Assembly: GCF_964204645.1 (NCBI RefSeq)
Contig: NC_134027.1
Location: forward strand, 1,520,485 to 1,584,484
Direction of reading: 5' to 3'
Length of the DNA: 64,000 nucleotides
From: Tubulanus polymorphus
Taxonomy: Eukaryota; Animalia; Nemertea
A model generated the notes under the pieces. It searched no databases, was not told the origin of the DNA, and saw only the letters and a program-made list of their open reading frames with translations. The translations under genes were made by a program, and so were the position numbers. This document shows positions 1 through 48,300 of the stretch, one piece after another (positions within the stretch are counted from its first letter, which is position 1; each line of letters opens with the position of its first letter).

Positions 1-132
1 AAGGTACGTTTATGAAAAAATAAGCTTGCATAGGCTGACAATAACCCTGCAAAATGTCTTACATGACTCTTATGGCTGAGATTGAAGTAAAATTTTCTGT
101 GAAATTAAAATGGTTGCCTATTTCATTTTCAG

Positions 133-1046
<914 letters not shown>

Positions 1047-1508
1047 CTTTGGTCCAGCCAGTTTAGATTGTACAAAATACTAGTTTTAATGTAATATATG
1101 TAAATCATAAATAAATAAATTATTCAAAATATATGAAATAAGGAATCAAGACTTTTGTTTTATGTCTCAGAATATTTGGGTCTTCTCCTATGCTTTAGCT
1201 GCTTGACCACTAATTTCATATTCCTTGCTTGTCTTGACGATGGTCTGATTAAAGCTCTAAAATCTAAACACATCAAAGAGTTAAGCCTATAATATGAGAC
1301 ATTTTGAAATTAGATTTTCTAAACCATGAACAAATTTCACTGTTTTTCATTAGTTTCTATTGTATCAAAATAAAATATGAGTTTTATTGATCCGTATATT
1401 AGTGCATACCCAGTAATGCCAAATCCGCGTATTAGCGTTTGATAGATAGACGGCGCTTTGCTTGATTATCGGTGATTTTGGGGCCGAATTTCAGTAGATC
1501 TTGTCGAG

Positions 1509-15452: not shown

Positions 15453-17148
15453 ATGTCTGCGATTAAAAAGTTCTTCGAAAAGAAGAAAATGGAATTGAAA
15501 TTTAAGAAGTTGGGAACAGGGCATCGTTTAAATGAGGAATCATCGGGTAGTAATTCTATCGGCGCTACTGGTAGTTCGTCCGCTCGACCGACCTCCCCTC
15601 GACGAGCTCCGATCTCATCTGAAGCTCAAAAAGCTGCTGAAGCCGCAATGGCGCGATTGAATAAACCAACTACTAGAAAACCAGGTCAGCTTCTCACTTT
15701 CCACTGGTTTTACTTTAAATGATTTACTCTTAACTTTCTACCATTGTGCAAATATTATTGTTCATCCAACTCTCTGACCGGCCGAAAGACTCGTTTAAAA
15801 GTATGTATGCTGTATCTATGTGTGTTTGTAATTATAGTGAATTCGTTGGACGCCGAGAAACAAGCGATGCGTCGACAAATAGAAGCTGAACGTGCAGCAC
15901 ACAATAAAACAGCGGAATATTTCACAGGTCCTCGTGAGGTACGAGTCAAACTCGCTGCATAAATCGTCTTAGCTCGGACGATCATCGAGTTAGTTATAGA
16001 AATTGAATTAGAAACTTTCTTCGGTTTTTAAAATAATTAACCTAGTCGTATCTGGTCATTTTGGTTCTATTGCCAATCTAACAAATTAAGACCAGTGTTA
16101 AGATTTAAAACTACTTTTGTAATTGTAGGTTTGTAAAGACCATGCCGATGTTCTAGCCGGTGTATTCTTCAAGTGTCCGATGGTCGGTCCAGATGTTTTA
16201 CCGAAATCTGAAATGGAGGCGAAAATCAACGAATTCCTGCTGATGCAACTGAGCGAAGAACCGGAGATGGCTTCGGCGATGATGATTCATACTCTCAATA
16301 AAGACAAAGATAAAGTGAAATCGTGCGTCGATATTATTTGTAAATATTTGGATAATTTGATCGATAACGAGGGCGGCGAAAAATATTGTAAGATTCGCGT
16401 CGGTAATCGAGTATTTCAAGAGAAAGTGATCGCGTTAGAGGGAGTCGATGAGTTCATGCAGTCAGTCGGGTTTACGCGTCGTATGATCCCGAATCCGGAA
16501 ACGGAAGAGGAATTTTACGTGATTTCCGCCGAGCTGGCCGTTGACGTCGAACGTCTGTCGACGATCAAAGACGTTTTACTGGCGGCCGAACCACTCAGAC
16601 CGGAGTTAGATCGCGGATTACTTGTGTTCCGCTGCGGTGGCGCCACCGCTGCGGTTGCGCAGATCGAGCGCGTACGTCTGCCCGACGCGTTCTACGCGAT
16701 CTCAGCCGACGAGTTGAAACGTGAGCAGCAACTGCGAGCAGACGCCGTCGAGAAACTCGGCATGTTGCGAACGAAAGCGATGCGAGAACGAGACGAACAG
16801 CGCGAACTACGTCGATATCGATACACGCTCATTAGAATACGATTCCCCGATTCATTCGCGATTCAGGGGACATTCCGAGCGAATGAGAAAGCGTCGGCCG
16901 TTTTCGAGTTCGCTCGCGAGAACCTCGAGAATAGTTGGATGCCGTTTGTGTTGACGGTTTCGAGCGGACAACGAATCGACGATTCCGATTCGTCGACGTT
17001 AGCCGAGTTAGGATTAGTTCCGGCTGTCGTATTGAATTTCTCATTTGATTCAACGATTCAAGCTGAAGTCGCGTCTCAACGAGGAGCAGCAGCAGACGCT
17101 ATCGAATATCTTCGATCTGATTTAATTTCGTTGGCACAGAATTTATAG
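15453..17148 (+). CDS. UBXN6: UBX domain-containing protein 6 (PUB + UBX p97 cofactor); exons 15453-15684, 15838-15938, 16129-17148
   Basis: MSAIKKFFEKKKMELKFKKLGTGHRL, VIM-like AAEAAMARL, VFFKCPMVG, PUB motif EKYCKIRVGNRVFQEKV, LRTKAMRERDEQRELRRYRYTLIRIRFPD..QGTF, UBX LAELGLVPA. Confidence 0.95.
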
Positions 17149-21000: not shown

Positions 21001-24000
21001 CAAGAAGAGCAGTAATTATACGGGTAGTTAGTTCGTTAAGAGATCTGCGTTTCTTATTAATTAACAACACGTTTTAATACTTGAGTTGAAAATAGGAATA
21101 AATGCAAAGAATAAAGTGTTAATCAACTAAGCCTCCTCACGCCTCACAGGGTTTCAAACCTGATGGCGTCGTGAGACTTGATGTCGAATAACGACAAACT
21201 AAACTAAATGAGGCCCTACACGCTGCATCAGTTAACCCACTAGACAGCGTGCATATCTATAATTCATTTTCAACTAACTTTCATCCAGATTTTAAGCCGC
21301 CCACACAAAAGATTAGACAAATCACATAAATCTTGATAAACTCACGATTGATGTTTAGGTTTATAGTTTGATTTTCATTCATTATCCGTGGAATTTCCTC
21401 GATTGCCACAGTCAAACGTAGAGAGCAGAATCAGGAGGATTCAAAATTCCCAGCACCCGAAAAAAAATATCACTTAAAATGCTACAGTTTTTATCTGTAT
21501 AGATGTGACCAAAAAAAAGTAGTAAAACTAGAAAATAATAGGAAAAAGTTCCCATGAGTGACTTCAACATTTGACAACAAAATTAGACTTTAAAATCATA
21601 GCACGTTTTTATAATGCATAAAATTGTGTGGTGAGGTCTGAAGAGGCTATAATGCATAATGGTCTATACTAAAATAGCTAAAACCAAATGAACTGAGACT
21701 GGTTTTAGATCTATAACCTCATGACTGCTGAACTCAACCCAAAGAAGCGCCAGTTCTATGCTCAGCAACTGACTCTTCATCCTCCCTACCTCGGAATCAG
21801 ATTTGAATCCCTGTAGCAGAAGGATGAAGGCTGAACTCTATAAATTCAACAACCAATCGTACAACTTTATCTGTACTTCAATTTCAAAATCGAATTCCCT
21901 GTTTCGCTCCAAGTAGGTGTGCCTGGTGGATTCTAAAGGGACACCAAATCAAAACAAATCAGACTAAATCTTCCAACCAATTAAGTTACAGGGTTAATCC
22001 CTATTTTCAGATCAAAAACATTTGAGTTTTTAGATTGTAAAACTATGAATTGTTTGATGTTTGTTGTTTGTGTGAATCAATGATTTCCTGAACTCGAACT
22101 ACGACGCTTTGCATCATATCAAACGTATGCAGCGCCGTCGTGACGATATTCATTTGTTGGTCTTTCGGTAATCGGGGTAAGGGTAAACCTCCGACCGTAA
22201 CGCTCGTTAAATCGGAATCTTTATTTCCGCTCGAGTCGGTCAGGAGCGACGACGCTTCCCCTTTTAAACCGCGCAGTTCGAGCTCGTAATGAGCGCGGGA
22301 CATTTCAATCCCCGTCAACAACGGTTCCATGTAACTCGACGTTAAATTCGCGACGTAATTCCAGATGGCGGTGGCGTTAACGTTTGGGTCGTCGCGCAGC
22401 ACGAGGTATCGTAGCAGATTCAACGCGGCCATGATCGCGTCGGAGTGCTCCAACAGATCGGTCGTCGCTCCGTCCGCGAGCGTGAAGATATTTGAGTAGA
22501 ACCGCGGTAACTTGTCAGCGGAGAAACTGTCGTCGCTGTCGTCACGTCGTAAACTAGAATCGATTTCTTGTTTTAACAGTTGAATAACGAACCCGGTGAA
22601 CCCGGCGTGGTGACTGATGTTTAATAGGTAATAGATGAACGAGTTTTTACCGCGCGAGTCAAATTTCGACAGTTGTTTCGGGAATAATCGTAAAGCCGTC
22701 TGTCGAACGTCTCTCGCTGAGCAGCGAATAACGCACTGCGCGAGCAGACGCACGCACTGAGTGAAATCGTCGTTATCGAGCCAGTCATACGATACAGAAC
22801 CGGGCGCGATCTCCGCGATCAACTGATCCACGATACGAACCCCCTTCGCGACGACGAACGGCTCCGAACGCTGCAACAGCGCCACCGCATACGGTAAACT
22901 ATCGAGGAAGACGAACTCCGCTCGCAGAACGCTCGGATAATTCAACGACGCGTGCATTCGTTCACCGTGGATCAAATAAACGAAACACGCGACACCTAGT
23001 TCAAGGTCGTTCTCTTCGTTACGATATCCACCGGCGTCGTCTGCCGCAGTCACGAGTTCAGACATCCACGTGATAGCGCGATGTAAATCAGCGCACATCG
23101 ACGTGACGTATTTAATCAATAATTCAGACATGACGCGCACGAGTGATTTCGTTCCGTTCTCGTCCACGGTCAAATCTAGAAATACGAGGGGGTGATTGAG
23201 TAATTTCAACAGGTACCGAACGACCAGTTTCCTCTGATCGGGGATCCCCGGTTTCTCGTTACCGCCCGAGTCAGGGATTCCCTGTTTATTGTTACCACCC
23301 GTGACGGGGATTCCCTGTTTACTGTTACCGCTCGCGACGGGGATTCCCGGTTTAGCTTCGTTTACGAACGGTTTCAAAAACGTCAACAGAGCCGATATCA
23401 CGTCGCCGATTCGTAGGATTTTTGGATCGCTATCGAGGATCTTTTTCTCGTTGGTTTCTAAATTCGCCGATACGTCTTTCGACGGTAGTTCGAGGCAGAG
23501 AATGTGAGCGTACAGAGTCTCGAGGGTCATCTCCAGCGAATATTGACGCTTCGTCGGCAGACGTAACAAAACCGTTTGAATCGCGTGCAGCAGTGTTTTA
23601 AATTTAACGTCATCTTTAAAACTGTCGGCTTGTTCGAGCAGCCCGAGTAGTAACTCTTTAGCGTTTCCCGTCCTCGCCAGGTGGACGAGCGCTTGTTCGC
23701 AGAAATCAACGAGCTTCGGTCGTTTTCGATTGTTGCGTTCGGTTAAACACGAACACAACACCGGAACTAAATCCCATCCGATCGATTCCAGGTGCGTTTT
23801 ATTTTCATCGGCGTAAAATGTGGCGTTCAAACGACAGATTTCTCGTTTAGAGATCATCTGCTGGAGGTCGGCGATGAAAATATTTTGACGTTCCTCGCGG
23901 GTCGGATCGGAGCTATGCTCGGAGCATTCCTGTTTCTGATCACCGCACTCCGAGGAAGCTTCCCGTGGCAGATTAGCACACTCGGACGCTTCCCGTGTCG

Positions 24001-24580
24001 CAACAAAGGCACGCTCGGTGCATTCCTGTTTCTGATTGGCGCGCTCGGAGGAAGCTTCCCGCATTGTATCGATACACTCAGAGTCGCCCTTCTCAGTGGC
24101 GACAACTAGATCAATATTACAACTAGATTCAGCCATTTCGAGTTTGGAATAATTTACAGTCTGTAAACGATAAAAACATCAATAACAAACTCTTCAGTTC
24201 AGCGCAACGCTAAAAAACAAGACACCCCCTCCTTTTCTAAAACAAAAACCTTGCGAAAAAAATCTTCTTAAGAAAACAATGTAATGGTACAATGTTTTTA
24301 AATGGATTAGTGAAGGACTGATTTTAACCGGTATTGAACTCGATACCTCTAAAATTTCCATTAAAAGTATATCACAATAATGCAAGCAGATTGAATTGAA
24401 CTTGATTGAGAAGTTTCTTCAATTTTTTGGTTCTCTCTGAATTTTCAACCAGATGAAAAACTTGATGTGATTCAAAATAACGGTATAAATCGAAGATCGA
24501 ATACTTGACCTACTATAAAAAATCCAATACTCACCGAAACTCGGCAATTCTAGACTTGAACGGCAGATACAGCGCAACAT
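18072..24580 (-). CDS. COQ9: Ubiquinone biosynthesis protein COQ9, mitochondrial (exon 1 24580-24535; exon 2 20074-19996; further exons down to stop at 18074-18072)
   Basis: ILEAAVNHVHEHGWTSNAIGAG, GLFPRGGIELVHYF, LVDDIWYYAGDNSHD, MNWYTKRAMLAYVYKTSEIYMTQDTSEGHKDTWMFLDRRL; N-terminus MLRCICRSSLELPSF|GLARILVLRNCSS resembles a mitochondrial presequence and is phase-1 compatible. Confidence 0.9.
19140..19390 (+). repeat. ~39-bp tandem repeat containing ACTGTGGAACTGGATCCAG in a COQ9 intron
   Basis: 6-7 diverged copies; same core as the 55.7-56.3 kb minisatellite. Confidence 0.75.
20648..20770 (+). repeat. ~48-bp tandem repeat (about 2.5 copies)
   Basis: GACTGTGCTTACC..GGAGCCGGTTGCCTCGGGTTATCACATACCCCG repeated. 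Confidence 0.75.
22043..24136 (-). CDS. GLMN: Glomulin (YAP-binding/ALF4/glomulin family), 697 aa, intronless ORF
   Basis: Motifs IGWDLVPVL, GNAKELLLGLLEQ, HHAGFTGFVIQLLKQEI, TDLLEHSDAIMAALNLLRYLVLRD..NATAIW, GIEMSRAHYE, ALHTFDMMQSVVVRVQEII. Confidence 0.93.
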   Translation of the reverse strand: MAESSCNIDLVVATEKGDSECIDTMREASSERANQKQECTERAFVATREASECANLPREASSECGDQKQECSEHSSDPTREERQNIFIADLQQMISKREICRLNATFYADENKTHLESIGWDLVPVLCSCLTERNNRKRPKLVDFCEQALVHLARTGNAKELLLGLLEQADSFKDDVKFKTLLHAIQTVLLRLPTKRQYSLEMTLETLYAHILCLELPSKDVSANLETNEKKILDSDPKILRIGDVISALLTFLKPFVNEAKPGIPVASGNSKQGIPVTGGNNKQGIPDSGGNEKPGIPDQRKLVVRYLLKLLNHPLVFLDLTVDENGTKSLVRVMSELLIKYVTSMCADLHRAITWMSELVTAADDAGGYRNEENDLELGVACFVYLIHGERMHASLNYPSVLRAEFVFLDSLPYAVALLQRSEPFVVAKGVRIVDQLIAEIAPGSVSYDWLDNDDFTQCVRLLAQCVIRCSARDVRQTALRLFPKQLSKFDSRGKNSFIYYLLNISHHAGFTGFVIQLLKQEIDSSLRRDDSDDSFSADKLPRFYSNIFTLADGATTDLLEHSDAIMAALNLLRYLVLRDDPNVNATAIWNYVANLTSSYMEPLLTGIEMSRAHYELELRGLKGEASSLLTDSSGNKDSDLTSVTVGGLPLPRLPKDQQMNIVTTALHTFDMMQSVVVRVQEIIDSHKQQTSNNS

Positions 24581-27126: not shown

Positions 27127-27690
27127 GAGAGAGAGAGAGAGAGAGAGAATGCAAAATTGTAATAGATGGGTACATATTAATTATGTATAAAAATGGATAT
27201 TTCACACAAACAATAAAATTCCGTGACTCCCTCAAGATGCAGGACGGTTGGCAGTTCTGAAAGGTTGAGGGATGCAAAATCATTCAAAGAGAAACATCTC
27301 TTTTTTGCGGCCTCATGTCCTTCATGTGATGATAAATAGGATGAAAACCTAAATAGAGCACGGCCACGAGCTCCGATGAGAGCAAAAGGGATTTTTAGGT
27401 TATTGTGACGTGTGTAGGTACGTCAACACTACATAAATGGGTTGGAGGAATGTGGTGACGCATAAACACGTCACAATCAGTGAATTCCAAGCCATGTCTG
27501 GTCAAGGGTCTGCAAACGTTACTAAAGAGTAAAACAATATAAAAGGACACCGGGAGACATCAAAAGACTGGAAAGAGAACAGCCGGGGAGCGAGAACACA
27601 TAGAAATAATAAAAGCATATTATTCACTGGAGAAGATTCTTCTGTTCATTTTCTATCACCAGATAATTTATACATTATAACCGAGGTATG
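27127..27690 (+). promoter_or_regulatory. Promoter/leader module P1 of the RRM cassette locus
   Basis: (GA)n, several TGACG/CGTCA half-sites, TATAAAAG at 27538-27545, 5' splice site CCGAG|GTATGC at 27685/6; repeated at 32141-32660 and ~35880-36240. Confidence 0.55.
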
Positions 27691-27832
27691 CGTATATTCC
27701 GTAGAAACCTTGTTATATCGAATATCTAATACAACAGGCAATTAAAGGGGGGGTGCTACAGCATTACTAAGAGACATTCACAACTCCTAAACTGCAGTAA
27801 CTCATCCTGAGTTCTAAATATTGTTATTGTAG

Positions 27833-29263
27833 ATCAAAATGCTTTGGATTCATTGTAGCTGCTGTTGATACAGCAGAAATGATAATCAAGGAAAACCCAC
27901 ACCATATAGATGGTGTTGTTGTGGATTTTGAAATGGCGAAAGAGGTAAGCTATCATACTGTGTTATTCAATCTCTGGTAATGCAATCCAAGGTATGTTCC
28001 ATAGATATAAAAAAAACAATATAGCGGTATTTTGTCAGGTAATTAAAGGGGTGCTTCAGCATTACTAAGAGACATTCACAACTCCTAAACTGCAGTAACT
28101 CATCCTGAGTTCTAAATATTGTTATTGTAGATCAAAATGCTTTGGATTCATTGTAGCTGCTGCGGATATAGCAGAACAAATAATCCAGCAGAACCCACAC
28201 CATATAGATGGTGTGGGTGTGATTTTTCGAAATCGCGAAAGAGGTAAGCCATCATGCTGTGTTATTCAAACTCTGGTAATGCAATGCAAGGTATGCTCCA
28301 TAAAGAATATTTCCATTTATTATATATGTTAGGGCCCCGAGTAAGATATAGATAAACAATATAGCGGTATTTTGTCAGGTAATTAAAGGGGTGCTTCAGC
28401 ATTACTAAGAGACATTCACAACTCCTAAACTGCAGTAACTCATCCTGAGTTCTAAATATTGTTATTGTAGATCAAAATGCTTTGGATTCATTGTAGCTGC
28501 TGCGGATATAGCAGAACAAATAATCCAGCAGAACCCACACCATATAGATGGTGTGGGTGTGATTTTTCGAAATCGCGAAAGAGGTAAGCCATCATGCTGT
28601 GTTATTCAAACTCTGGTAATGCAATGCAAGGTATGCTCCATAAAGAATATTTCCATTTATTATATATGTTAGGGCCCCGAGTAAGATATAGATAAACAAT
28701 ATAGCGGTATTTTGTCAGGTAATTAAAGGGGTGCTTCAGCATTACTAAGAGACATTCACAACTCCTAAACTGCAGTAACTCATCCTGAGTTCTAAATATT
28801 GTTATTGTAGATCAAAATGCTACGGATTTATCGATGTGCCACAAGATGTAGGAGAACAAATAATGAAGAACAACCCACACCATATAGATGGTGTGGGTGT
28901 GATTTTTGAAATCACGAAAGAGGTAAGCTATCATGCTGTGTTATTCAATCTCTGGTAATGCAATCCAAGGTATGTTCTATAAAGAATATATACCTTGAAA
29001 TATTGGGGGCCCCGAGTAAGATACAAAAAAACAATATAGCGGTATTTTGTCAGGTAATTAAAGGGGTGCTTCAGCATTACTAAGAGACATTCACAACTCC
29101 TAAACTGCAGTAACTCATCCTGAGTTCTAAATATATATATACATACTATTATCAATGTAGGTCAAAATGCTACGGATTCGTAGTAGCCCCAACAAATGAA
29201 GCTGAAAAGATTTTAAATGAAAACCCACATCTTATAGATGGTGTGGGTGCTAATTTTTGCTAG
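27833..29263 (+). repeat. B-cassette array 1: five tandem exons encoding the C-half of an RRM (27833-27944, 28131-28243, 28471-28583, 28811-28922, 29161-~29263)
   Basis: TGTAG acceptor and AAAGAG|GTAAGC donor; e.g. SKCFGFIVAAVDTAEMIIKENPHHIDGVVVDFEMAKE (RNP1-like KCFGFI, PHxIDG motif); period 340 bp. Confidence 0.85.
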
Positions 29264-29318
29264 GAACGGGACGACGTTCAGCTGTGTTTTATTCATAATT
29301 TTCTCCTTCATTCCACAG

Positions 29319-31657
29319 ATGAAGTTATATGCAAAAAAACAACAGGGAAAAGTTTAAAAAAATATTTCAATAACCATGAAATAAAAAAGCTTATGTGGTA
29401 AAAGATAAAAAAAACCAGTAAGTTTATGATGTTTTTATTTCAAATGTGTTTAATGTTCATAATGAAGGAATAGAGGCGTCATCAGGAATTTAAGGTTGTA
29501 AGGTGTATATGTTTATCTAAGGGATGACGTTCAGCTGTGTTTTATTCATAATTTTCTCCTTCATTCCACAGATGGAACGTAATCCTAATGTCAAATTAAT
29601 TGCAAAGAAAATTGCCAAAAAAACTACAGGCAGTACGTTGAAAAAATATTTTAATAACAAAAAAATTTAAAAAGCGTATATAATAAAAGATAGAAAAAAC
29701 CAGTAAGTTCATGATCTTTTTATTTAAAATGTGTTTAATTTTCCTAATAAAGGAATAAAGGCTCCATCAGGAATTTAAGGTTGTAAGGTGTATATGTTTA
29801 TCTAAGGGATGACGTTCAGCTGTGTTTTATTCATAATTTTCACCTTCATTCCACAGATGGAACGTAATGTCAAATTAATTGCAAAGAAACTTGCAAAAAA
29901 AACTACAGGCAGTACGTTGAAAAAATATTTTAATAACAAAAAAATTAAAAAAGCGTATATAATAAAAGATAGAAAAAACCAGTAAGTTTATGATCTTTTT
30001 ATTTAAAATGTGTTTAATTTTCCTAATAAAGGAATAAAGGCTCCATCAGGAATTTAAGGTTGTAAGGTGTATATGTTTATCTAAGGGATGACGTTCAGCT
30101 GTGTTTTATTCATAATTTTCTCCTTCATTCCACAGATGGAACGTAATCCTAATGTCAAATTAATTGCAAAGAAAATTGCCAAAAAAACTACAGGCAGTAC
30201 GTTGAAAAAATATTTTAATAACAAAAAAATTTAAAAAGCGTATATAATAAAAGATAGAAAAAACCAGTAAGTTTATGATCTTTTTATTTAAAATGTGTTT
30301 AATTTTCCTAATAAAGGAATAAAGGCTCCATCAGGAATTTAAGGTTGTAAGGTGTATATGTTTATCTAAGGGATGACGTTCAGCTGTGTTTTATTCATAA
30401 TTTTCACCTTCATTCCACAGATGGAACGTAATCCTAATGTCAAATTAATTGCAAAGAAAATTGCCAAAAAAACTACAGGCAGTACGTTGAAAAAATATTT
30501 TAATAACAAAAAAATTAAAAAAGCGTATGTAATAAAAGATAGAAAAAACCAGTAAGTTTATGATCTTTTTATTTAAATGTTTTTAATTTTCCTAATAAAG
30601 GAATAAAGGCTCCATCAGGAATTTAAGGTTGTAAGGTGTATATGTTTATCTAAGGGATGACGATTAATTATGTATTTATCTACTATTATCTATCGTTAAA
30701 AACAAAAGCTTTTTTTACATTTGATCTTTAAGGAATTGAATTTTATTGTAAATCCCTGAATTCTCTTACAGATACCAATGAAGCAAAGGCTAAGAAGTGC
30801 AACCAGATGGAGAAATGTAAGTTTTGAATTTTCTCCTTCATTCCACAGATGGAACATAAAGGAATAAAGGCTCCATCAGAATTTAAGGTTGTAAGGTGTA
30901 TATGTTTATCTAAGGGATGACGTTCAGCTGTGTTTTATTCATAATTTTCTCCTTCATTCCACAGATGGAACGTAATCCTAATGTAAAATTAATTGGAAAG
31001 AAAATTGCCAAAAAAACTACTGGCAGTTCCTTGAAAAAATATTTTAAAAACAAAAAAATTAAAAAAGCGTATGTAATAAAAGATAGAAAAAACCAGTAAG
31101 TTTATGATCTTTTTATTTAAATGTTTTTAATTTTCCTAATAAAGGAATAAAGGCGTCATCAGGAATTTAAGGTTGTAAGGTGTATATGTTTATCTAAGGG
31201 ATGACGTTTAGCTGTGTTTTATTCATAATTTTCTCCTTCATTCCACAGATGGAACGTAATCCTAATGTAAAATTAATTGGAAAGAAAATTGCCAAAAAAA
31301 CTACTGGCAGTTCCTTGAAAAAATATTTTAAAAACAAAAAAATTAAAAAAGCGTATGTAATAAAAGATAGAAAAAACCAGTAAGTTTATGATCTTTTTAT
31401 TTAAATGTTTTTAATTTTCCTAATAAAGGAATAAAGGCTCCATCAGGAATTTAAGGTTGTAAGGTGTATATGTTTATCTAAGGGATGACGTTCAGCTGTG
31501 TTTTATTCATAATTTTCACCTTCATTCCACAGATGGAACGTAATATCAAATTAATTGCAAAGAACCTTGCAAAAAAAACTACAGGCAGTACGTTGAAAAA
31601 ATATTTTAATAACAAAAAAATTAAAAAAGCGTATATAATAAAAGATAGAAAAAACCA
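29319..31657 (+). repeat. A-cassette array: eight tandem exons encoding the N-half of an RRM (29319-29417, 29572-29702, 29857-29981, 30136-30266, 30421-30551, 30965-31095, 31249-31379, 31533-31657)
   Basis: TTCCACAG|ATG acceptor and AACCA|GTAAGT phase-2 donor; MERNPNVKLIAKKIAKKTTGSTLKKYFNNKKIKKAYVIKDRKN; period ~285 bp; A1 frameshifted, A2 and A4 have TAA. Confidence 0.85.
30772..30816 (+). other. Short Arg-rich exon C1 of the RRM locus
   Basis: TTACAG|ATACCA...AGAAAT|GTAAGT, 45 nt, IPMKQRLRSATRWRN. Confidence 0.55.
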
Positions 31658-31878
31658 GTAAGTTTATGATCTTTTTATTTCAAATGTGTTTAATTTTCCT
31701 AATAAAGGAATAGAGGCGTCATCAGGAATTTAAGGTTGTAAGGTGTATATGTTTATCTAAGGGATGACGATTAATTATGTATTTATCTACTATTATCTAT
31801 CGTTAAAAACAAAAGCTATTTTTACATTTGATCTTTAAGGAATTGAATTTTATTGTAAATCCCTGAATTCTCTTACAG

Positions 31879-31938
31879 ATCCCGGACAGAACGCCACTAA
31901 AAGAAAGGCTAAGAAGTGCTACAAGGAGACGGAGAAAT
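31879..31938 (+). other. Short Arg-rich exon C2 of the RRM locus
   Basis: 60 nt, phase 0-0, IPDRTPLKERLRSATRRRRN. Confidence 0.6.
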
Positions 31939-32140
31939 GTAAGTTTTGAATTTTCTCCTTCATTCCACAGATGGATGGAACATACTGTTTACAATTCAAA
32001 CTGAAATATTTTGACCTTTTATTTGTGGTATATTTCACTAAATTTTAAGTATTAGTGAACTTTTTATTTGAAATATCATAATCTATTGAAAATATTTCGA
32101 GCAATAACTAGACATGCGTAAAGAATACCCCTTGGCCAGT

Positions 32141-32660
32141 GAGAGAGAGAGAGACAGAATGCAAAATTGTAATAGCTGGGTACATATTAATAAAGTATAA
32201 AAATGGATATTTCGCACAAAAATAAAATTCCGTGACTCTCTCAAGATGCAGGACGGTTGGCAGTTCTGAAAGGTTGAGGGATGCAAAATCATTCAAAGAG
32301 AAACATCTCTTTTTTGCATGGCCACGAGCTCCGATGAGTGCAAAAGGGATTTTTAGGCTACTGTGACGTGTGTAGGTACGTCAACACTACATAAATGGGT
32401 TGGAGGAATGTGGTGACGCATAAACACGTCACAATCAGTGAATTCCAAGCCATGTCTGGTCAAGGGTCTGCAAACGTTAGTAAAGAGTAAAACAATATAA
32501 AAGGACACCGGGAGACATCAAAAGACTGGAAAGAGAACAGCCGGGGAGCGAGAACACATAGAAATAATAAAAGCATATTATTCACTGGAGAAGATTCTTC
32601 TAGCGTTCATTTTCTTCTATCACCAGATAATTTATACATTATAACCGAAATACGGTATGC
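32141..32660 (+). promoter_or_regulatory. Promoter/leader module P2
   Basis: Near-identical direct repeat of P1; TATAAAAG at 32496-32503; donor TACG|GTATGC at 32654/5. Confidence 0.55.
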
Positions 32661-32806
32661 GTATTGCGAATATAACGTAGAAACCTTGTTATATCCGAAT
32701 ATCTAATACGACAGGCAATTAAAGGGGTGCTTCAGCATTACTAAGAGACATTCACAACTCCTAAACTGCAGTAACTCATCCTGAGTTCTAAATATTGTTA
32801 TTGTAG

Positions 32807-34707
32807 ATCAAAATGCTTTGGATTCATTGTAGCTGCTGCGGATATAGCAGAACAAATAATCAAGCAGAACCCACACCATATAGATGGTGTGGGTGTGATT
32901 TTTCGAAATCGCGAAAGAGGTAAGCCATCATGCTGTGTTATTCAAACTCTGGTAATGCAATGCAAGGTATGCTCCATAAAGAATATTTCCATTTATTATA
33001 AATGTTAGGGCCCCGAGTAAGATATAGATAAACAATATAGCGGTATTTTGTCAGGTAATTAAAGGGGTGCTTCAGCATTACTAAGAGACATTCACAACTC
33101 CTAAACTGCAGTAACTCATCCCGAGTTCTAAATATTGTTATTGTAGATCAAACTGCTATGGATTCATAAATGCTCCTGTTGATGTAGCAGAACAGATAAT
33201 CAAGGAAAACCCACACCATATAGATGGTGTGGGTGTGATTTTTGAAATCACAAAAGAGGTAAGCCATCATGCTGTGTTATTGCAATCCAAGGTATGCTCC
33301 AGAAATATACCGTTATTATAAATGTAGGGGATTCATGATCTGCCCCTTTCTGATGTAGATTTCATACCTATTTATATTTGTAAAAATTGTACTAGGCAAA
33401 TTCTCAAACCAACCCCCGGGTCCTGCTCCTGATGACGCCTATGTGGAAATAAAAACTGACATCACTTTAGTATTTTATACAACTTAACTTCTTATTTCTA
33501 CAATACACACTAGCACGCTACATATAATTCCATGTATTCTAACCGAGTATGCCAATGTGGCATTTTCTTTATAACAACAGATCCTCCTTTATTCGGTAAC
33601 CAAAAACCTGTATGTCTCCTGGAGAAAATACTACACACTTTGAGGTTAATCCTTTTAATCAAAAGTTTACTAAACCTACAACGTTTCACCTTTTTCCTAA
33701 CAGCCATCATCTGGTGTATGGGATTCATTTCAATCACATCCGTGAATTTGATATCAATAAATACTCAATACGTTCTAATACGATATTAATATTGTTATTG
33801 TAGGTCAAAATGCTACGGATTTATCGATGTGCCAAAAGATGTAGGAGCAGAAATAATGAAGAACAACCCACACCATATAGATGGTGTGGTGATTTTTCGA
33901 AATCGCGAAAGAGGTAAGCTATCATGCTGTGTTATTGCAATCCAAGGTATGCTCCAGAAATATACCGTTATTATAAATGTAAGGGCCCCTAGTAAGATAT
34001 AAACAAGAAAATTAATTCAAAAAAAATTATTTGACGCCTGCAAAAAAAATGTAGAATTTCTGGGATAAGCTTATGTGGAATTGCAAATTTGAAATCGAAA
34101 ATTTAAGAAATTTGGGGAATTATGAGATTTGGCGATTGGGTAGATGATACAGTTCTTCGACGTGGTTTAATTGTTTTTATTGAAAATTCTCAATAATTGA
34201 TTACGAACTTGCGACCGACTTCATTTACTTATGCCTCTAAGCGGGTCTGCAACTTCATTGCCTCCATGGGCCCTAAGGCAATTAAAGGGGTGCTTCAGCA
34301 TTACTAAGAGACATTCACAACTCCTAAACTGCAGTAACTCATCCCGAGTTCTAAATATTGTTATTGTAGATCAAAATGCTTTGGATTCGTAATCGCTGCT
34401 GTTGATACAGCAGAAATGATAATCAAGGAAAACCCACACCATATAGATGGTGTTGTTGTGGATTTTGAAATGGCGAAAGAGGTAAGCTATCATGCTGTGT
34501 TATTCAATCTCTGGTAATGCAATCCAAGGTATGTTCCAGATATAAAAAAACAATATAGCGGTATTTTGTCAGGTAATTAAAGGGGTGCTTCAGCATTACT
34601 AAGAGACATTCACAACTCCTAAACTGCAGTAACTCATCCTGAGTTCTAAATATTGTTATTGTAGATCAAAATACTTTGGTTTCATTGTTGAGGCACACGA
34701 TGTGGCT
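32807..34707 (+). repeat. B-cassette array 2 (32807-32919, 33147-33258, 33804-33913, 34370-34481, 34665-~34707 truncated)
   Basis: Same splice sites and spacers as array 1 with variant cores, e.g. SNCYGFINAPVDVAEQIIKENPHHIDGVGVIFEITKE. Confidence 0.85.
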
Positions 34708-35879
34708 GTATTTAGTAGGGGCAAGGGGAAATTTTGGAAAAGTGGCTTTTTGCAAATATCATTATATCCTCCTCACCAAAGAATATAAAGGTTAGTTTTT
34801 CACAAAGAGCAATATTCACAAAGAGGCATTAGTATTTTTTCCAATGGCAAAGTATTTTTTCAACAATTTTTGTGGTTTTTTGCATGGACTATGATGCCAT
34901 TTGCATTTAATTTTTTCTAATGTTCCTTTTCAATGTTCCTTTTTGATTGAGTGCCAGGACATGCCTAAGAGACTACTGATAGAACGACACGTAAAGCAAG
35001 ATCGCGGATCCAGTAAAAGTTTGAATGCTTCACCAAATTATTCTATTTGAAGTAACTATCAAAATTTTGAGATGCCAATTACCAAAGGCGCCATCTTTGA
35101 ACATAAACAAACGGTATCTGGGTAACGAAAAACAACCGCCACATTTTGATTGAGTGCCAAAGAAAACTGTAAAGCAAGATCGCAGATAATTTTGACTGCT
35201 AAAATATTAAGGTTTGTTCTTCACAAAGAGGCATAAGGAATCAACCCCAATGGCAAAGCATTTTCAACAATTTTTGTTGTTTTTTGGCGTGCGAGACTGT
35301 GGACTATGAATTTTGATGCCATTTGCATTCTAATGTTCCTTTTTCAACACGCCTAGCCTGGATTTTTACAGGATCGACACACTTCGCCAGAAAACGACAT
35401 TCGTTCCTGCATGAAAAACTAAGCTAAAAATCAATCACAGACTCCAGTTTCACAGAGCAGTTTCACAAAGTCCCTTTAATTACAATTAAATCACTAAATC
35501 ATCATCATATTTGAATTGTCATTATTAATCTTAGGCCATAAGTTGGTAATAAAGCGTTAACTTTATCATAATTAAGTCAATGACAAGATTTAATTCTCTC
35601 ATGCTGACTCAAATTGCTGACATCCCCAGGGCAGTAATAACTGATCAATTTCCATTGTTTAAAATTTCAAGCATTATTTACCATTGAGAGAAGGGTCAAT
35701 TTTTTGTTCCCTATTTGTGCTAACTAGCATTCCTCATTTATTTAGTGTGTCTGATCTGCTACTGCTTGAAATGAATCATATCGTGTGATGGAAAATTACT
35801 ATAAACATCAAGAAAAAACTAGTTGTTGCAATTATTCTAATAAATAGAAGTAATGAAAATAAACACGTCTGCATGTGAC

Positions 35880-36240
35880 GTATGTGTCCACGTAGGAAAA
35901 CCTAAATATAGCACAACCACGAGCTCCGCTGAGTGCAGAATGTATTTTTAGGTTATTGTGATGCGTGTAAGTACATCAACACTCCATACATGGGTTGGAG
36001 GAATGTTGTGACGCATAAATACCTCACAATCCGTGAATTCTAAGCTATGTGTGGTCAAGGGTCTGCACGAGCTACTAAAGAGTAAAACAATATAAAAGGA
36101 CACCGGGAGACATCAAAAGACTGGAAAGAGAACAGCCGGGGAGCGAGAACACATAGAAATAATAAAAGCATATTATTCACTGGAGAAGATTCTTCTAGCG
36201 TTCATTTTCTATGACCAGATAATTTAAACTACGGTATATG
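35880..36240 (+). promoter_or_regulatory. Promoter/leader module P3 (more diverged, partial)
   Basis: Homologous to P1/P2; TATAAAAG at 36091-36098. Confidence 0.5.
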
Positions 36241-37497
36241 TATATACCGTAGATATCCAAATGTCATCTAAAACCAAGGGATATTCATGCGTGTGTGTAT
36301 AAAAAGACTTCAATGCTACTAAGCGTTCAATAGAATATCACAGAAACGCCATTAGAACGGGAAGTTGATTCAATCACATAAAAATACTAATTAAGTGCTA
36401 TGAATTAAAAATATAAAAGTAAATGAAAATACATTCCCCAAATCCAAGACAAGAATCATGACCAAAATATAAATTACCTTCCCTACAAACTGCATGTAGT
36501 TCTGACTTATTTTTTTAATATAACTTCAAAAACAATGATGTTTTTAAGAAACAAGAGTTCAAGTTATAATTGTTCGTTTGCCCTTTTTGCTAACAGAAGT
36601 ACACACGATCATTTCGACTTTGCACATGGAGTGGACTAGATCGGTGTTGTGGAGTCCAGAACTCTCGCTATTCGCGATCTGATTTTAAACAAGTAAAATC
36701 GTTACCATATACTACTTGTATTCACCCGGTTGGTTTTTATTTTCATCATAAAAAGAAGGTATTAACTCTAGGCCTGGTCGGCAGCATTTTATTTTAACGA
36801 TTTTTACAGTTAATTTATCTGACCCGGCCGGGGAATTTGAAACAAGGTATCATTTTTTGGCCTAACAGCAAGCGCAAAGAAGCAATATTGAGAAAATTTA
36901 CAACCGCAAGCGGCCGATTTCTAAAACAGATGAGAATTCCGCGTGGATCCGTGGATTTTGGTACCGAAAAATAGAATTTTCCAAATAGTCTAAAAATGAT
37001 GTAAAAGATTGCTTCAAGTGCTCAGAAAACGCTTTAAATTTCGTTGGGGGAGCGCCAGAAAAAGCCATCAGCTTGTTCGCATGTTTAATAATGTTTAGTT
37101 CGAGTGTATAATTTTAAAAAATCCGCGGATTTTATAGGTCGGTGTTCTCATCCCTGATCTAACTTGTTTGATATTTTTGGCGTAGCACGCCAAGGCCACC
37201 CGTGTGCACCTAATTCTGCGGCCAGGATTTAGCCAGATTTGAATTCAATGTGCATGCATGAGATACTTGATTAATTGACCACTTGACCTACACTATTGAC
37301 AGGTGCAGTGCATGATGCTGCGTCGTTTGTTGCTGGGTAATTAAATTGCTGCGGCGTAGTTGTTGCGGCCGCTAGTGTGCGGCGGTCTTTAGTTATACTA
37401 CACAGGCTGCGAAAACATTAATCATTGAAATCGTCCTGCACTGATGTGGGCGCAGTATATCGGGGGTTGACTGTAATTTGTAAATTTCAAAACTTAC

Positions 37498-40138
37498 GTT
37501 CAGTCTCCTTGTAGCACTTCTTAGCCTTTCTTTTAGTGGCGTTCTGTCTGGGATCTGTAAGAAAATTCAGGGATTTACAATAAAATTCAATTCCTTAAAG
37601 ATCAAGTGTAAAAATAGCTTTTGTTTTTAACGAGAGATAATGGTAGATAAATACATAATTAATCGATTTTGAAATTTATGCTGTAATGAGTGATGGATTA
37701 TTGAAATATTAACGATTGAAAAGGAATTTTCACAATATGCAATGAGCTCGTGTAGACGCTACTTAATGCGAACACAGGTTTTCGTCGAACCCGGGTTTCA
37801 ATGTACATGAGCTAGAGTAGACGTGGTATTACAGATCAATTGACAACACGTTTGGGAAGAATAAAAGGTTAAAAATTAGAGCAATTCAATTAAAGGAAAG
37901 GAATAAGGTAGGAAGAAGAGATGAGGCAGTGATCAGAGGGAAATGTGGGTGAAATGTTGAAGGGTTTTAATGCCTCTTTGTGAAAAACTAACCTTTAAAT
38001 TTTCAGCAGCAAAATTATCCACGATCTTGCCAACCACAGGTGCTGCTGCTGCTACCAGTGCTGCTGGTTGCGCCGCTGCGGCTGGTGTTTTCTGTTCACA
38101 AAAAAATTAATCAAAAATTTTACTTAGGAAAAAATAAATGTTAATCGGGAACAGGCTTTCTCGAAACTTGAAGAGTGAGTGATTTCGGGTCCAAGTACAA
38201 TTCACATGAGTATGAGTATTAGTGCATCTTTCAAGTGAGTGATTTGGCTCACGTTAGCTCTTCATTGACAAGCTGACCAGTCAGTCAATGAAGTCAACAT
38301 TGACCAGTGTACAGGTCAAACTACAACTGATGATAACTACTTTAATTCAAACCACAAGAAAACTAGATTTTGCAGCCAAAAAATTCAGACAAAATACCGC
38401 TATATTGTTTATCTATATCTTACTCGGGCCCCCAATAATAACAGTATATATTCTTTATGGAGCATACCTTGGATTGCATTACCAGAGATTGAATAACACA
38501 GAATGATGGCTTACCTCTTATGCTAATTCGAATGTTACATGCACCCCATCTATATGGTGTGGGTTGTTCCTCATTATTTGTTCTGCTATATCCGCAGCAG
38601 CCATTGAAAATCCAAAGTATTTTGATCTACAATTACAATATTTAGAACTCAGGATGAGTTACTGCAGTTTAGGAGTTGTGAATGTCTCTTAGTAATGCTG
38701 AAGCACCCCTTTAATTACCTGACAAAATACCGCTTTATTGTTTTTTTATATCTTACTAGGGGCCCTTACATTTATAATAACGGTATATTTCTGGAGCATA
38801 CCTTGGATTGCAGTAACACAGCATGATAGCTTACCTCTTTCGCGATTTCGAAAAATCACCACACCATCTATATGGTGTGGGTTGTTCCTCATTATTCTTT
38901 CTGCTACATCCGCAGCAGCTACAATCCGTAGCATTTTGATCTACAATAACAATATTAATATCGTATTAGAACGTATTGAGTATTTCTTGATATTAAATTC
39001 ATGGATGTGATTGAAATGAATCCCATACACCAGATGATGGCTGTTAGGAAAAAGGTGAAACGTTGTAGGTTTAGTAAACTTTTGATTAAAAGGTTTAACC
39101 TCAAAGTGTGTAGTATTTTCTCCAGGAGACATACAGGGTTTTGGTTACCGAATAAAGGAGGATCTGTTGTTATAAAGAAAATGCCACATTGGCATACTCG
39201 GTTAGAATACATGGAATTATATGTAGCATGCTAGTGTGTATTGTAGAAATAAGAAGTTAAGTTGTATTAAATACTAAAGTGATGTCAGTTTTTATTTCCA
39301 CATAGGCGTCATCAGGAGCAGGACCCGGGGGTTGGTTTGAGAATTTGCCTAGTACAATTTTTCATATATTCACAAATAGGATGAAACCTACATCAGAAAG
39401 GGGCAGATCATGAATCTTGGATAAAGGCATGAAAAGTGCAGAAATTATCGCTGGTTTGATCAGAAAAAGCCGTCACTCAAACGCCATAAATATTTATTAG
39501 GACCGAGTCTCTTAGATATGGGGGCAAGGGTAGTAATTTGTCAGTTATTACCATGGACTCAGGTTGAGGATTTACCCCTTGGGCCACTTGACCCAGTCTA
39601 TAAAATGGGCACAGGTCTTATCCATGTGCAAATTACCCTTTTTGGCAAGGTTTGGTCCCACCTGTGGAAATCAACCTGAAATAAACCACATTAGCAGGGT
39701 CTTTTACAATCCAGGGTCATAGCTAGCATTTGAATTTCAGGGGGGGGGGGCAGAGAAACCCGAAAAATGGCAGTTCTATAGGATATAATAATATTTGCAA
39801 AAAGCCACTTTTCTAAAATTTCCCCTAGCCCCTACTAATTACAGCCCGGCAATCCACTCATTTTTTGTACAGTCAACCCCTGATAAACTGCTATCAGGTG
39901 TGATACAAGTGTTCGTAACATCTTACAACCTAAAATTCCTGATGACGCCTTTATTCCTTTATTAGGAAAATTAAACACATTTTAAATAAAAAGATCATAA
40001 ACTTACTGGTTTTTTCTATCTTTTATTACATACGCTTTTTTAATTTTTTTGTTATTAAAATATTTTTTCAGCGTACTGCCTGTAGTTTTTTTTGGCAATT
40101 TTCTTTGCAATTAATTTTACATTAGGATTACGTTCCAT
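37498..40138 (-). pseudogene. Inverted copy of the RRM gene in canonical exon order: A (40138-40007), B (38940-38835), B (38626-38515), D (38091-37993), C (37554-37498)
   Basis: Reverse-complement matches to the plus-strand cassettes; phases 0-2, 2-0, 0-0, 0-0; D = KTPAAAAQPAALVAAAAPVVGKIVDNFAAENLK. A has one extra A in a homopolymer, the first B has a 4-nt deletion, the second B has TAA just before its donor. Confidence 0.7.
39304..39950. mobile_element. TIR-bounded non-autonomous element in the A-B intron of the inverted RRM copy
   Basis: AGGCGTCATCAGGA ... TCCTGATGACGCCT terminal inverted repeats; single ends recur in A-repeat spacers and at ~33428-33441. Confidence 0.6.
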
Positions 40139-40188
40139 CTGTGGAATGAAGGAAAAAATTATGAATAAAACACAGCTGAACGTCATCC

Positions 40189-40390
40189 CGGTGCGATTCA
40201 AGAATAGGGGACTATAGTAATATATGTAGTGATAGTTATCAATTAAGTAATAATATTAGTAATTGATAATGATGATATATAATGATAGTAATGTACATAG
40301 TAATTAATGATAATTAGGGAACTAAACCTAACCCTAACCCTAATCCTAACCCTAATCCTAACCACTAGTCCCCTATTCTTGAATCATACC
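40189..40390. mobile_element. MITE with internal (CTAACC)n tract
   Basis: GATTCAAGAATAGGGGACTA / TAGTCCCCTATTCTTGAATC inverted repeats enclosing telomere-like hexamers at 40322-40363. Confidence 0.65.
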
Positions 40391-45300: not shown

Positions 45301-48300
45301 AGACAGAGTATATACTCATTAGCTGGAGGAGATACAGATACAATGAGACAGGCTCGAACTTTACTGTGGAATGAATTACACGATATTTCTGTTAAAGTTG
45401 GTAAGTTACGTGCATCAAATACAGGCTGCCAAGTGGCTTTACATTTCCTACATCTCCCTGCAAAAAACATTGCTGTTGAATACTGCGTGATTATTCAATA
45501 TGTTTTTGTTATTATAAGTTGTAATTCCGGGACAATACGATTACATTTCTTCATCTCCGGCGGAATTTCATCATCAATTACTCAACAATCCGATAAAAAG
45601 TTCATCGGACCCATGTTTCCAATGGCAACCGATTATACATTCGTATATCGAGGTAAGACGACGCAGTGTGAAATTTAAGAGCGATCGATTTGAAAACTTG
45701 TTCGTTTTTTCGTGTTTTTAAGGACGGCGTGAGTATGGCTGAAGATAACAGTATCGTAATAAACTCTGTGATTGATTCTAGTTGTCAGATCGGTTCTAAT
45801 ACAGCAGTATTAAACTGTCAGTTAACAGGCTGCGACGTTACTATCGGTAAACAGTGTCTTGTATCTGGAATACAATCTGAACAACTTCAGGTACTAATCA
45901 TAATCATATAGCTTCAGCGTTAGGTCACCAAACAAACAAACAACTATATTCATCCTTCAAATGTCTATAAACAGTCAACCAAGATATACTGCGCCCACAT
46001 CGCTGCAGAAGAATTTTGGCGGTATATAGAGTATGGCGGTATATCGGGGGTGTTTTACTATGTATTTGTATAGAGATGTACATCGAGAAAACCTGGCAGT
46101 AGGTGGGGGTGGCGGTTAATGGGAGGGCGGTATATCGGGGGTGTTTTACTATGTATTTGTATAGAGATGTACATCGAGAAAACCTGGCAGTAGGTGGGGG
46201 TGGCGGTTAATGGGAGGGCGGTATATCGGGGGTGTTTTACTATGTATTTGTATAGAGATGTACATCGAGAAAACCTGGCAGTAGGTGGGGGTGGCGGTTA
46301 ATGGGAGGGCGGTATATCGGGGGTGTTTTACTATGTATTTGTATAGAGATGTACATCGAGAAAACCTGGCAGTAGGTGGGGGTGGCGGTTAATGGGAGGG
46401 CGGTATATCGGGGGTGTTTTACTATGTATTTGTATAGAGATGTACATCGAGAAAACCTGGCAGTAGGTGGGGGTGGCGGTTAATGGGAGGGCGGTATATC
46501 GGGGGTGTTTTACTATGTATTTGTATAGAGATGTACATCGAGAAAACCTGGCAGTAGGTGGGGGTGGCGGTTAATGAGAGGGCAGAATATCGGGCTTGAC
46601 TACACATGAAATCGCAAATATAGTGTTCGATGTCTTAAGCGAATTGGTTATAACTGTTTGCTAATAATTATTTTACTGAAGACGAGAAAAGAGAAATGTT
46701 TGTTAATTTCTGCCCAACTCTGATGTTTGCGTATTTGTAGAATTTGGAATCATTAGATGTTGTAGATGCGACAGTTTTACAATCGCATACAGTGAAATTA
46801 CCGATGTTTACAGGAGGTGTCACCAGTATTATTACAGCGATAGGATTGATGGATAGCTTAAAGGTTTGTTGGAGAAACATCTGTCAAGCTATTGAAGTAA
46901 AATATACATCAGTTAATTTACTTATCATAAATTGAACAATCATTTCTATATTTAGGGTAATGTGTTAGATGGAACCTATTGTAACCGTCCATGGACAGAA
47001 CTATTTACGAGAACAGGAATAACTGTTGGTGATCTCTGGGATATCGATTTAGTAAGTTCAACAGTAAATAGACCATATCTATGATCAATCCATCTCGTCG
47101 ATAAATCAATGTTTTTTGTTGTTTTTTTATCGCAGCCACAAGAATTAAAGAGATTAGAAAATGCGCGGTTATTCCCTGTGTCGCATATGCATCATTCAGT
47201 AGGACTATCAGAGATATTGTGGTTACAAGGCGTTTCTAGAAACAGTGCAGATATGTTACACAGGTCTGTCATGTTTATTATTCAGATATCATCGCGTCAA
47301 ATTCAACTCAGGTTTTAAGTTCGTCTTATTTGAAATATTGCAGGTGGAGATCATCGTGGAGGCTTTCTTTCAATGACATTTGGAGTTCACTGAGTTTGAG
47401 TAAGGATTTTGAAATGTGTCAGAATCTTGGATTCCTCGTCAGTAAGAACCTCATGCGTGATACACTGTTGGGAGGCAAAGACTTGAGATTATTGCAGCTT
47501 TATAGAACCGCTTGTCTTCACGGATTCCACAGAGAAATTCTTCTTGAATTAGATGAGAGTAGGCATTGATTCTCTACTATAACTGATAAACTTATATTAA
47601 TCTCAATATTTCAGAGTTAATGTGCAAAATGAACAGTTGATGATTTAACAATTCATTCGCCGGACAGTTTTGACTTCACTTCATCGTCACAGTAACCAAA
47701 ATGTTGTCGTTTTTATTTCTCTGATGATGAAGTTTCGTTAAAACTTTGAAACTGTCGATTTTGCTCATTATAACGTATATTGTTTATACTGATAAATGAT
47801 TGGTTTATTTTGTCAGTTGGTATCGAGTGTAATTCACCTGGTATTGCCGCCCGAACATTTGCTAATATAGCGGAGGTTTTAGCGTGTATGGCTGATGGTA
47901 AAGGTGGTCTGAGAAGTGGACCCGCTGGCAATCATAGATGGTCAAAAGCTTTCCAAATATTAGAGGTAAGAATGACCCGCTTTTACTCCGTGTTGTAATG
48001 ATAACATTAAAATCCCACATCAGGAAAGATGAGTTCGAAATATTTCCATGATTTATTAAATATATTGAACTAGTCTATGATAATCGGCTAGTAATATTCT
48101 CGTGAAGTTGACTATTAGGATACAATTTTCCTGTTTCATCACGTAGAAAGGTGATATAATACTGGGCGTGAAAGCTATGGCTGAAGAGAGACAGAACTGG
48201 TTGAAACAGCCGAGTTTATTAGTGAGAGCAGCGCGACATTACGAGGGAGCAGCTCAAATACTGGTCAGACATGCTACAGCTACTGCTAGAAAGGTACATT

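Follow-up and report, generated by a model that had tools for sequence, protein, structure and literature searches.

Tandem arrays of N-half and C-half RRM exons in the nemertean Tubulanus polymorphus: a possible partly decayed set of alternative exons

A stretch of 64,000 nucleotides of the Tubulanus polymorphus genome (NCBI RefSeq assembly GCF_964204645.1, contig NC_134027.1, positions 1,520,485 to 1,584,484 of the forward strand) contains two kinds of short exon-like cassettes, called here A and B, repeated in tandem and accompanied by a third unit, C. This whole stretch is the window, and all coordinates below are positions within it. Sequence comparison establishes that A and B correspond to the N- and C-halves of one RNA-recognition motif (RRM) of the hnRNP A/Musashi type. 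We favour, with about even weight, the explanation that an RRM gene of ancestral A-(B)n-C order, with B exons that served as mutually exclusive C-halves, has been amplified in tandem and rearranged, and is now partly decayed and probably little or not expressed.

The identity of the joined domain is supported by in-silico splicing of A to B. All 24 joins made (24/24) were open, giving peptides of 78-81 aa which score 34-44 bits against an RRM profile, with controls far lower, and which align from profile position 3-5 to 80-82 of its 83 positions. The profile was built from 55 RRM segments of eight proteins, and since these segments were chosen by a C-half motif, the score of A is independent of that choice and the score of B is not. 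A alone reaches 12-15.5 bits, against a mean of -0.1 and a maximum of 8.5 for shuffled sequences, and none of 1000 shuffles attains the 13.0 bits of A5. For B, a profile of nine peptides was compared with 1.84 billion representative sequences and gave ten matches to E 0.001, eight of them RRM proteins with 3-19 RRM_1 stretches; no close relative of B was among these ten. The other two matches (P0002 and P0005) are non-RRM repeats and were excluded from the profile. A sequence search of the PDB with B gave non-significant matches (E 0.1-1.6), nearly all of them hnRNP A1 or Hrb27C-type RRM proteins, and in the atlas the clusters nearest to B were RRM_1 clusters (first match 0.86), which is a lead only. 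The same PDB search with A gave nothing relevant, the atlas gave no usable match for A, and Pfam gave no RRM match for the halves taken alone (four A and six B, with nine B in a second scan). The initial annotation had recognised an hnRNP A1/Musashi-type RRM in the joined peptide, and both the profile scores and the library matches bear this out, as an assignment to a domain type and not as an orthology. Judged from the alignment, the joined RRM is degenerate at RNP2, where the aromatic is replaced by Ile, while RNP1 retains two aromatics and lacks the last one; these aromatics are the RNA-stacking residues. The N-half is in addition very lysine-rich. A family of long proteins in Ditylenchus nematodes (P0001, P0003, P0004 and P0007-P0009), with 7-19 RRM_1 stretches and three members probably on one contig, is an independent RRM expansion.

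A profile search of the window located 9 A, 12 B and 3 C exon-like units and no further copy of any of them. On the plus strand they stand in the order P1, B1-B5, A1-A5, C1, A6-A8, C2, P2, B6, B7, D1, B8, B9, B10 and a partial P3, P and D being additional modules, and an inverted copy on the minus strand reads A9, D2, B11, B12, C3, so that a single A, a pair of differing B and a single C still follow one another there. The A units have a pyrimidine-rich acceptor, directly followed by the ATG of A, and a GTAAGT donor; they start in phase 0 and end in phase 2. The B units are entered in phase 2 and end at a GTAAGC donor wherever a donor remains (10/12). The tandem period is about 285 bases for A and about 340 for B, with inter-copy introns of 153 nt and 186-227 nt. 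This unit and frame survey confirms the nine A and twelve B cassettes with good splice sites and matching phases that had been described before; of the layout then proposed the plus strand stands, with an extra D between B7 and B8, whereas the inverted copy reads A-D-B-B-C and not A-B-B-D-C.

The condition of the cassettes is uneven. Five of the nine A are open and four damaged, the stop-free 112-nt form of B is found in four of twelve copies (B1, B4, B7 and B9) and the other eight are stopped, shifted or truncated, so that 12 of the 21 A and B copies are damaged in this haplotype; the splice sites are intact in all open copies. The plus-strand series begins with P1 (27127..27734), a non-coding module which is partly a dispersed repeat, upstream of B1 (27833..27944, 112 nt, open). 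B2 (28131..28243) and B3 (28471..28583) are identical units of 113 nt with frame-shifted last codons, B4 (28811..28922, 112 nt) is open, and B5 (29161..29267, end approximate) is diverged, truncated, devoid of a donor and fused to the unit of A1 (29319..29417), itself a diverged N-half exon with a deletion and a frameshift. A2 (29572..29702) and A4 (30136..30266), both of 131 nt, carry an in-frame TAA, while A3 (29857..29981, 125 nt), A5 (30421..30551, 131 nt), A6 (30965..31095, 131 nt), A7 (31249..31379, 131 nt, with the peptide of A6) and A8 (31533..31657, 125 nt, with the top RRM score) are open. The C units, C1 (30772..30816, phase 0 to 0, a likely linker or tail after B), C2 (31879..31938) and C3 (37498..37554, minus strand), measure 45, 60 and 57 nt and are open in both phase 0 and phase 1 in all three copies. 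Beyond P2 (32138..32711) follow B6 (32807..32919, 113 nt, last codons frame-shifted), the open B7 (33147..33258, 112 nt), the intron-like module D1 (33331..33803), B8 (33804..33913, 110 nt, last codons frame-shifted), the open B9 (34370..34481, 112 nt), B10 (34665..34708), which is only a 5' stub without donor, and P3 (35896..36253). In the inverted copy A9 (40007..40138, 132 nt) is frameshifted, D2 occupies 38941..39416, B11 (38835..38940, 106 nt) is frameshifted and B12 (38515..38626, 112 nt) has a stop near its end.

Which products such a locus could make is limited by order and frame. B1-B5 lie upstream of every A on the plus strand, and B7 and B9 downstream of A1-A8; because B1-B5 precede all A units, there are at most 20 open A-B pairs in cis, giving 16 distinct peptides, eight of them with a 112-nt B. 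The earlier statement that any intact A could be spliced to any intact B is right for the frames of the joins made, but is impossible in cis for B1-B5. Stops were met in A-A (A5-A6), A-C and A-B-B (A8-B7-B9) joins, and the frame break that had been predicted for A-to-A splicing is thus found, as is one for B-to-B, on one pair each. Joins of the types B-A and B-C-A-B (2/2 tested) are open. On the plus strand no C or other exon was found 3' of B6-B10, and reading through from B7 or B9 leads to a stop within 11-20 codons. Steric exclusion is unlikely as the cause of mutual exclusion, because the neighbouring gene splices introns of only 84 and 91 nt, shorter than the inter-copy introns of the array. 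When the locus is set beside the features of mutually exclusive exon clusters given in the excerpts of PMC5740500, neighbours of similar sequence, length and frame are found (A in five copies of 125 or 131 nt, B in four of 112 nt) and joint inclusion breaks the frame (A5-A6, A8-B7-B9); stop-free members amount to only 5 of 9 A and, in full form, 4 of 12 B. With many members stopped and no junction reads among the joints listed for seven sequencing runs, the locus does not pass as a validated cluster by that standard.

The evidence that the B exons were once used as alternatives comes from their divergence. In seven of the twelve copies, the exons differ at 17.4% of sites (409/2353), against 1.7% (34/1989) in the upstream intron, a stretch of 95 nt, and 9.2% (178/1942) in the downstream intron; variable columns number 43/112 in the exon against 4/95 upstream and 11/89 downstream (Fisher P 1e-9 and 3e-5). 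Codons 1-32, again in seven copies, have a synonymous proportion (pS) of 0.35 and a non-synonymous proportion (pN) of 0.19, a ratio of 0.54, which neutral star-tree simulations reach in 0.7, 2.5 and 4.8% of 1000 runs under three transition biases; six lineages stay without a stop in 13-15% of neutral runs. The B exons are also mosaics, with 135 of 378 site pairs incompatible and a clustering P of <1 in 20000 in nine copies. Since diverged exons with a low pN/pS lie inside homogenised introns, past selection appears to have kept the coding variants of B distinct, a conclusion which we grade as moderately supported and which is absent from the initial annotation. Copies of B under coding constraint within one array would have to be alternatives, because a B-to-B join breaks the frame, and this is our chief reason for proposing that a mutually exclusive array once existed. 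The tandem B-B junctions (e.g. 28020-28050) contain a pyrimidine run, an AG and then a GT donor-like motif, a candidate recursive splice site 95 nt 5' of B.

We propose the following history. Starting from the two halves of one RRM, which join in frame and hit stops when either is repeated, B would have been tandemly duplicated once together with its flanking intron, and its copies would have diverged as coding alternatives. Gene conversion and unequal crossing-over may have kept the introns near-identical and made the exons mosaic, while mutual exclusion would have followed from frame incompatibility and the decay of double-inclusion messages, perhaps aided by intron pairing. A would have been amplified at a presumably later time, and block duplications and an inversion have scrambled the order into the one described above. 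Finally, selection seems to have been relaxed, because an identical frameshifted B end occurs in five copies and an identical stop in two A copies.

The same locus may be read as debris, the scrambled remains of one multi-RRM gene or of a group of paralogues, and as a pseudogene in which the types of B stem from separate A-B-C repeats and were never alternative exons, the arrays having been gathered by template switching and exon-length conversion; we consider this somewhat unlikely. C fits a phase 0 linker, and the two open B-C-A-B joins are what such a chain would give. The donors of C1 and C2 are followed 32 nt on by a stub of an A acceptor (30817-30848 and 31939-31970); this fusion of C donor and A acceptor is probably a deletion product and hints at an ancestral C-to-A link. 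Short shared sequence is present at the module junctions, and because of these C-A stubs and shared stretches we infer that the rearrangement took place by template switching or unequal exchange. A1 and B5, a diverged pair, stand side by side, B has its best relatives among multi-RRM proteins, and no RNA or protein support was found in the searches below. The debris reading has difficulty, however, with the number of deep types, at least four for B against only two for A; apart from A1 the A copies are young and near-identical, with 2-11 changes in 125-131 nt among the five compared. The diverged B4, B5, B7, B10 and B12, in addition, all lie behind one common tandem junction, with upstream introns that hardly differ, a state that on this reading could arise only if exon-only conversion had happened repeatedly, and a parent gene was found neither in the window nor in the protein collections.

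Several points weigh against a decayed array of alternative B exons and should be set beside the argument for it. A1 too is more diverged in its exon than in its intron (15-18/85 exon against 1-2/51 upstream sites, relative to A2-A9), and this divergence together with the open B-C-A-B chains fits a former multi-RRM gene equally well. The support from pN/pS is modest, with P as high as 0.048, and the test assumes a star tree and takes no account of recombination. Neither an upstream first exon nor a promoter was identified, and no cassette splice was observed, so the alternative use of B is drawn from sequence evolution only. As for the silence of the locus, it rests on one verified RNA run of unspecified tissue, on contigs which drop rare forms and on the joints listed, and the low depth of A in another sample may partly be a bias against AT-rich DNA (the A exon is 76% AT).

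That other sample belongs to a comparison of sequencing runs, covering seven of the ten listed, in which X5 is raw DNA from another sample and study, X2 behaves as DNA and X8 is of unknown kind. The back-joint between two B units is present in 13 raw reads of X5, which also contains both end types of B, 11 of 36 reads lacking the extra base of B6. Depth in X5 is 4.5-7.8 for single-copy sequence (five bins), 5-10.6 for A, 32-58 for B and 12-14 for D, so that each genome copy would carry roughly 1-1.5 units of A and 5-8 of B. X2 holds one A contig, of the A8 type, with a head-to-tail A-A back-joint. From X8 came no more than one contig across the B-B junction, which is intronic, and a piece of repeat; X6 and X7 are uninformative, since no sequence matched in either and in X6 the control gene was missed as well. 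In X1 the contig depths, when summed, stand at about 9:12:3 (A 377-532, B 500-663, C 105-127; 46 for a unique junction contig); such sums do not measure copy number, and X1 is perhaps itself the source sample. The arrays are real, because both tandem junctions occur in the DNA of other samples; the B array is common to the samples, and the A array varies in number and in dominant type. An assembly artefact, which had been named as one outcome that would refute the initial interpretation, is hence scarcely credible: the exact duplicate units B2 and B3 mean that the count could be off by a few, but apart from the junctions the copies carry distinct variants and X1 shows its depth proportions.

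Expression was assessed in X4, the only verified RNA run. It shows four GT-AG joints of the neighbouring gene on one contig with a depth of 115.5, and a depth of 0 at all five places listed within the exon of A9. The intron with the A acceptor is covered by one contig, at a depth of 10.8, and B is present as an unspliced 328-nt contig running through both splice sites, at a depth of 7, where a unique contig between genes has 3.8. Among the joints listed for the seven runs no cassette splice joint was found, although contigs cannot prove absence. A word-based search of longer proteins, in a collection including the T. polymorphus UBX protein, gave 0/459 candidates for B and 0/2453 for A, which is weak evidence. 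The RNA and protein nulls weigh against broad expression and say little on a germline- or stage-restricted gene. A scan of viruses gave 0/22. In metagenomes 193 pattern matches led to one locus, L001, which was rejected because its similarity to B is antisense to a long open reading frame and due to chance; this frame (114-1430, minus strand, 438 codons) is, as we presume from its motifs, reverse-transcriptase-like and of the group II intron type.

An array still active in some tissue or stage, with expression probably confined to the germline or to one stage, would splice one of A3 and A5-A8 to one of B6-B9 and so make 8-16 single-RRM proteins. Here a single docking site in D would be contested by the motifs that follow the A exons, and selection would hold the C-halves apart against gene conversion. 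The open copies with intact splice sites, the 20 open cis pairs, the exon diversity kept against homogenised introns and the occurrence of the B array in another sample all agree with it, and so does a 14-nt exact complement between the intron after A and a site in D1 (duplex of -30 to -32 kcal/mol). A match of this level was reached in 18 of 20000 shuffles; the scan, however, took in 105 module pairs. The match is preserved behind A1, A6, A8 and A9, whereas behind A2-A5 and A7 two uncompensated changes disrupt it, and no covariation was seen in it. The 14-nt pairing counts as a lead but says nothing firm about function, because duplication of one arm of an intron stem by itself creates competing selectors, as the excerpts of PMC6071210 describe. 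No selector pairing for B rose above shuffles in eight of eight region pairs, and Rfam returned a single chance-level match (E 0.72). Against continuing activity stand also the 12 damaged copies, the similarity of most A, their number near 1-1.5 in X5, the lack of a C or other exon found after B6-B10, and X4, with no A exon and B only unspliced. We regard an active array as quite improbable, more so than the debris of a multi-RRM gene.

In the remaining scheme the cassettes would be silent donors, from which gene conversion transfers sequence to an expressed master RRM gene at another locus, in the manner of variable lymphocyte receptors (VLR) or of chicken immunoglobulin pseudogenes. Mosaic, diverged exons in uniform flanks, and many copies which could not be expressed in place, are what it would predict. 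A master gene would nevertheless reveal itself by a near-identical exon, yet X4 shows no spliced B and no A exon, and no such protein was found; the exon depth in X5 (32-44) does not exceed that of the flanking intron (58), so there is no sign of exon-only extra copies, and germline conversion accounts for the mosaics. A donor system is thus very improbable. The initial annotation had pictured a working combinatorial library, either a mutually exclusive array or a VLR-like donor system. Over half of the cassettes being damaged, with 8-16 products at most, no splice seen in X4 and no close protein, the working library is not upheld, and nothing was found in favour of the donor system; of the mutually exclusive array, the two RRM halves and their fitting frames survive, whereas its working use is unsupported by the verified RNA run.

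Several known systems share part of these features; in its working the locus would resemble an exon cluster of the Dscam or U2AF1 kind, and in its evolution it resembles DAZ. According to the excerpts of PMC3236188 and PMC6071210, the Dscam1 arrays likewise consist of tandem exons, each coding part of one domain, with short introns and frame-breaking double inclusion; they are described there as intact, expressed and bounded by constitutive exons, with no gene conversion between paralogous exons in Daphnia. In contrast, the worm locus has more than half of its copies damaged, strong conversion, a scrambled order, no splice shown and an intracellular RRM. In the excerpts of PMC5224494, exons 3 and Ab of U2AF1 are duplicated mutually exclusive exons for part of an RRM-like (UHM) domain, whose double inclusion leads to stops and nonsense-mediated decay; these are two exons with seven residue differences and vertebrate-wide conservation, whereas the worm locus holds 12 B and 9 A, covers both halves, and is lineage-specific and unstable. 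Primate DAZ, as presented in the excerpts of PMC2322974, is also an RRM gene with intragenic amplification, pruning and a copy number that differs from one individual to another, but what is repeated in it is the entire RRM block (exons 2-6), and exon 7, to give multi-RRM proteins, while the worm half-exons repeat separately, so that a chain of them breaks the frame. For bovine CEACAM32 the excerpts of PMC7042247 report a diverged exon between introns that gene conversion has made uniform, and read this as exon selection, although in separate genes of a cell-surface family and not in exons of one locus. The hnRNP A1 and Hrb27C-type RRMs, the type of nearly all weak PDB matches of B and of eight of its ten library matches, differ from the joined worm RRM in that the latter lacks the RNP2 and last RNP1 aromatics and has a lysine-rich N-half.

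A literature search on RRM, lophotrochozoan exon arrays and Tubulanus revealed, among the papers listed, no description of this locus or of such a system by title or abstract, most subscription papers lying outside its coverage. Large exon-choice arrays are known mainly for cell-surface proteins, and a domain-splitting array in an RNA-binding protein, if true, would add a novel means of varying RNA specificity; were it active, it would constitute a Dscam-like combinatorial code for an RNA-binding surface. Even if it is decaying, the locus captures the birth and breakdown of an exon array, with diverged exons in homogenised introns and different A variants amplified per sample.

The array interval is flanked by the 5' ends of two genes. 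To the left, a glomulin-like open reading frame (22043-24178, minus strand, Pfam match) is a single uninterrupted frame of 711 codons with a short internal 33-bp repeat; to the right lies a plus-strand gene with a weak fucose pyrophosphorylase match, presumably fucokinase-like, whose transcript starts by 42264 in X4. Because the array sits between the 5' ends of both neighbours, any gene built from it is most likely confined to about 18 kb. Further left, a UBX-domain frame (16129-17148) is 100% identical to a Tubulanus polymorphus protein at NCBI. Minisatellites occupy 46035-46594 (91 bp), 55734-56303 (21 bp) and 61639-62141 (56 bp), the 21-bp one containing open frames of 127 and 199 codons, the longer without a convincing Pfam match. 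The core of the P module (32304-32520) is a dispersed repeat with an X5 depth of up to about 280 against about 7 for single copy, and the part of P2 that matches P1 has a depth of >200. The upstream flank of A9 is abutted by a 200-bp element (40190-40390) resembling a miniature inverted-repeat transposable element, with 25-bp inverted ends and telomere-like hexamers inside.

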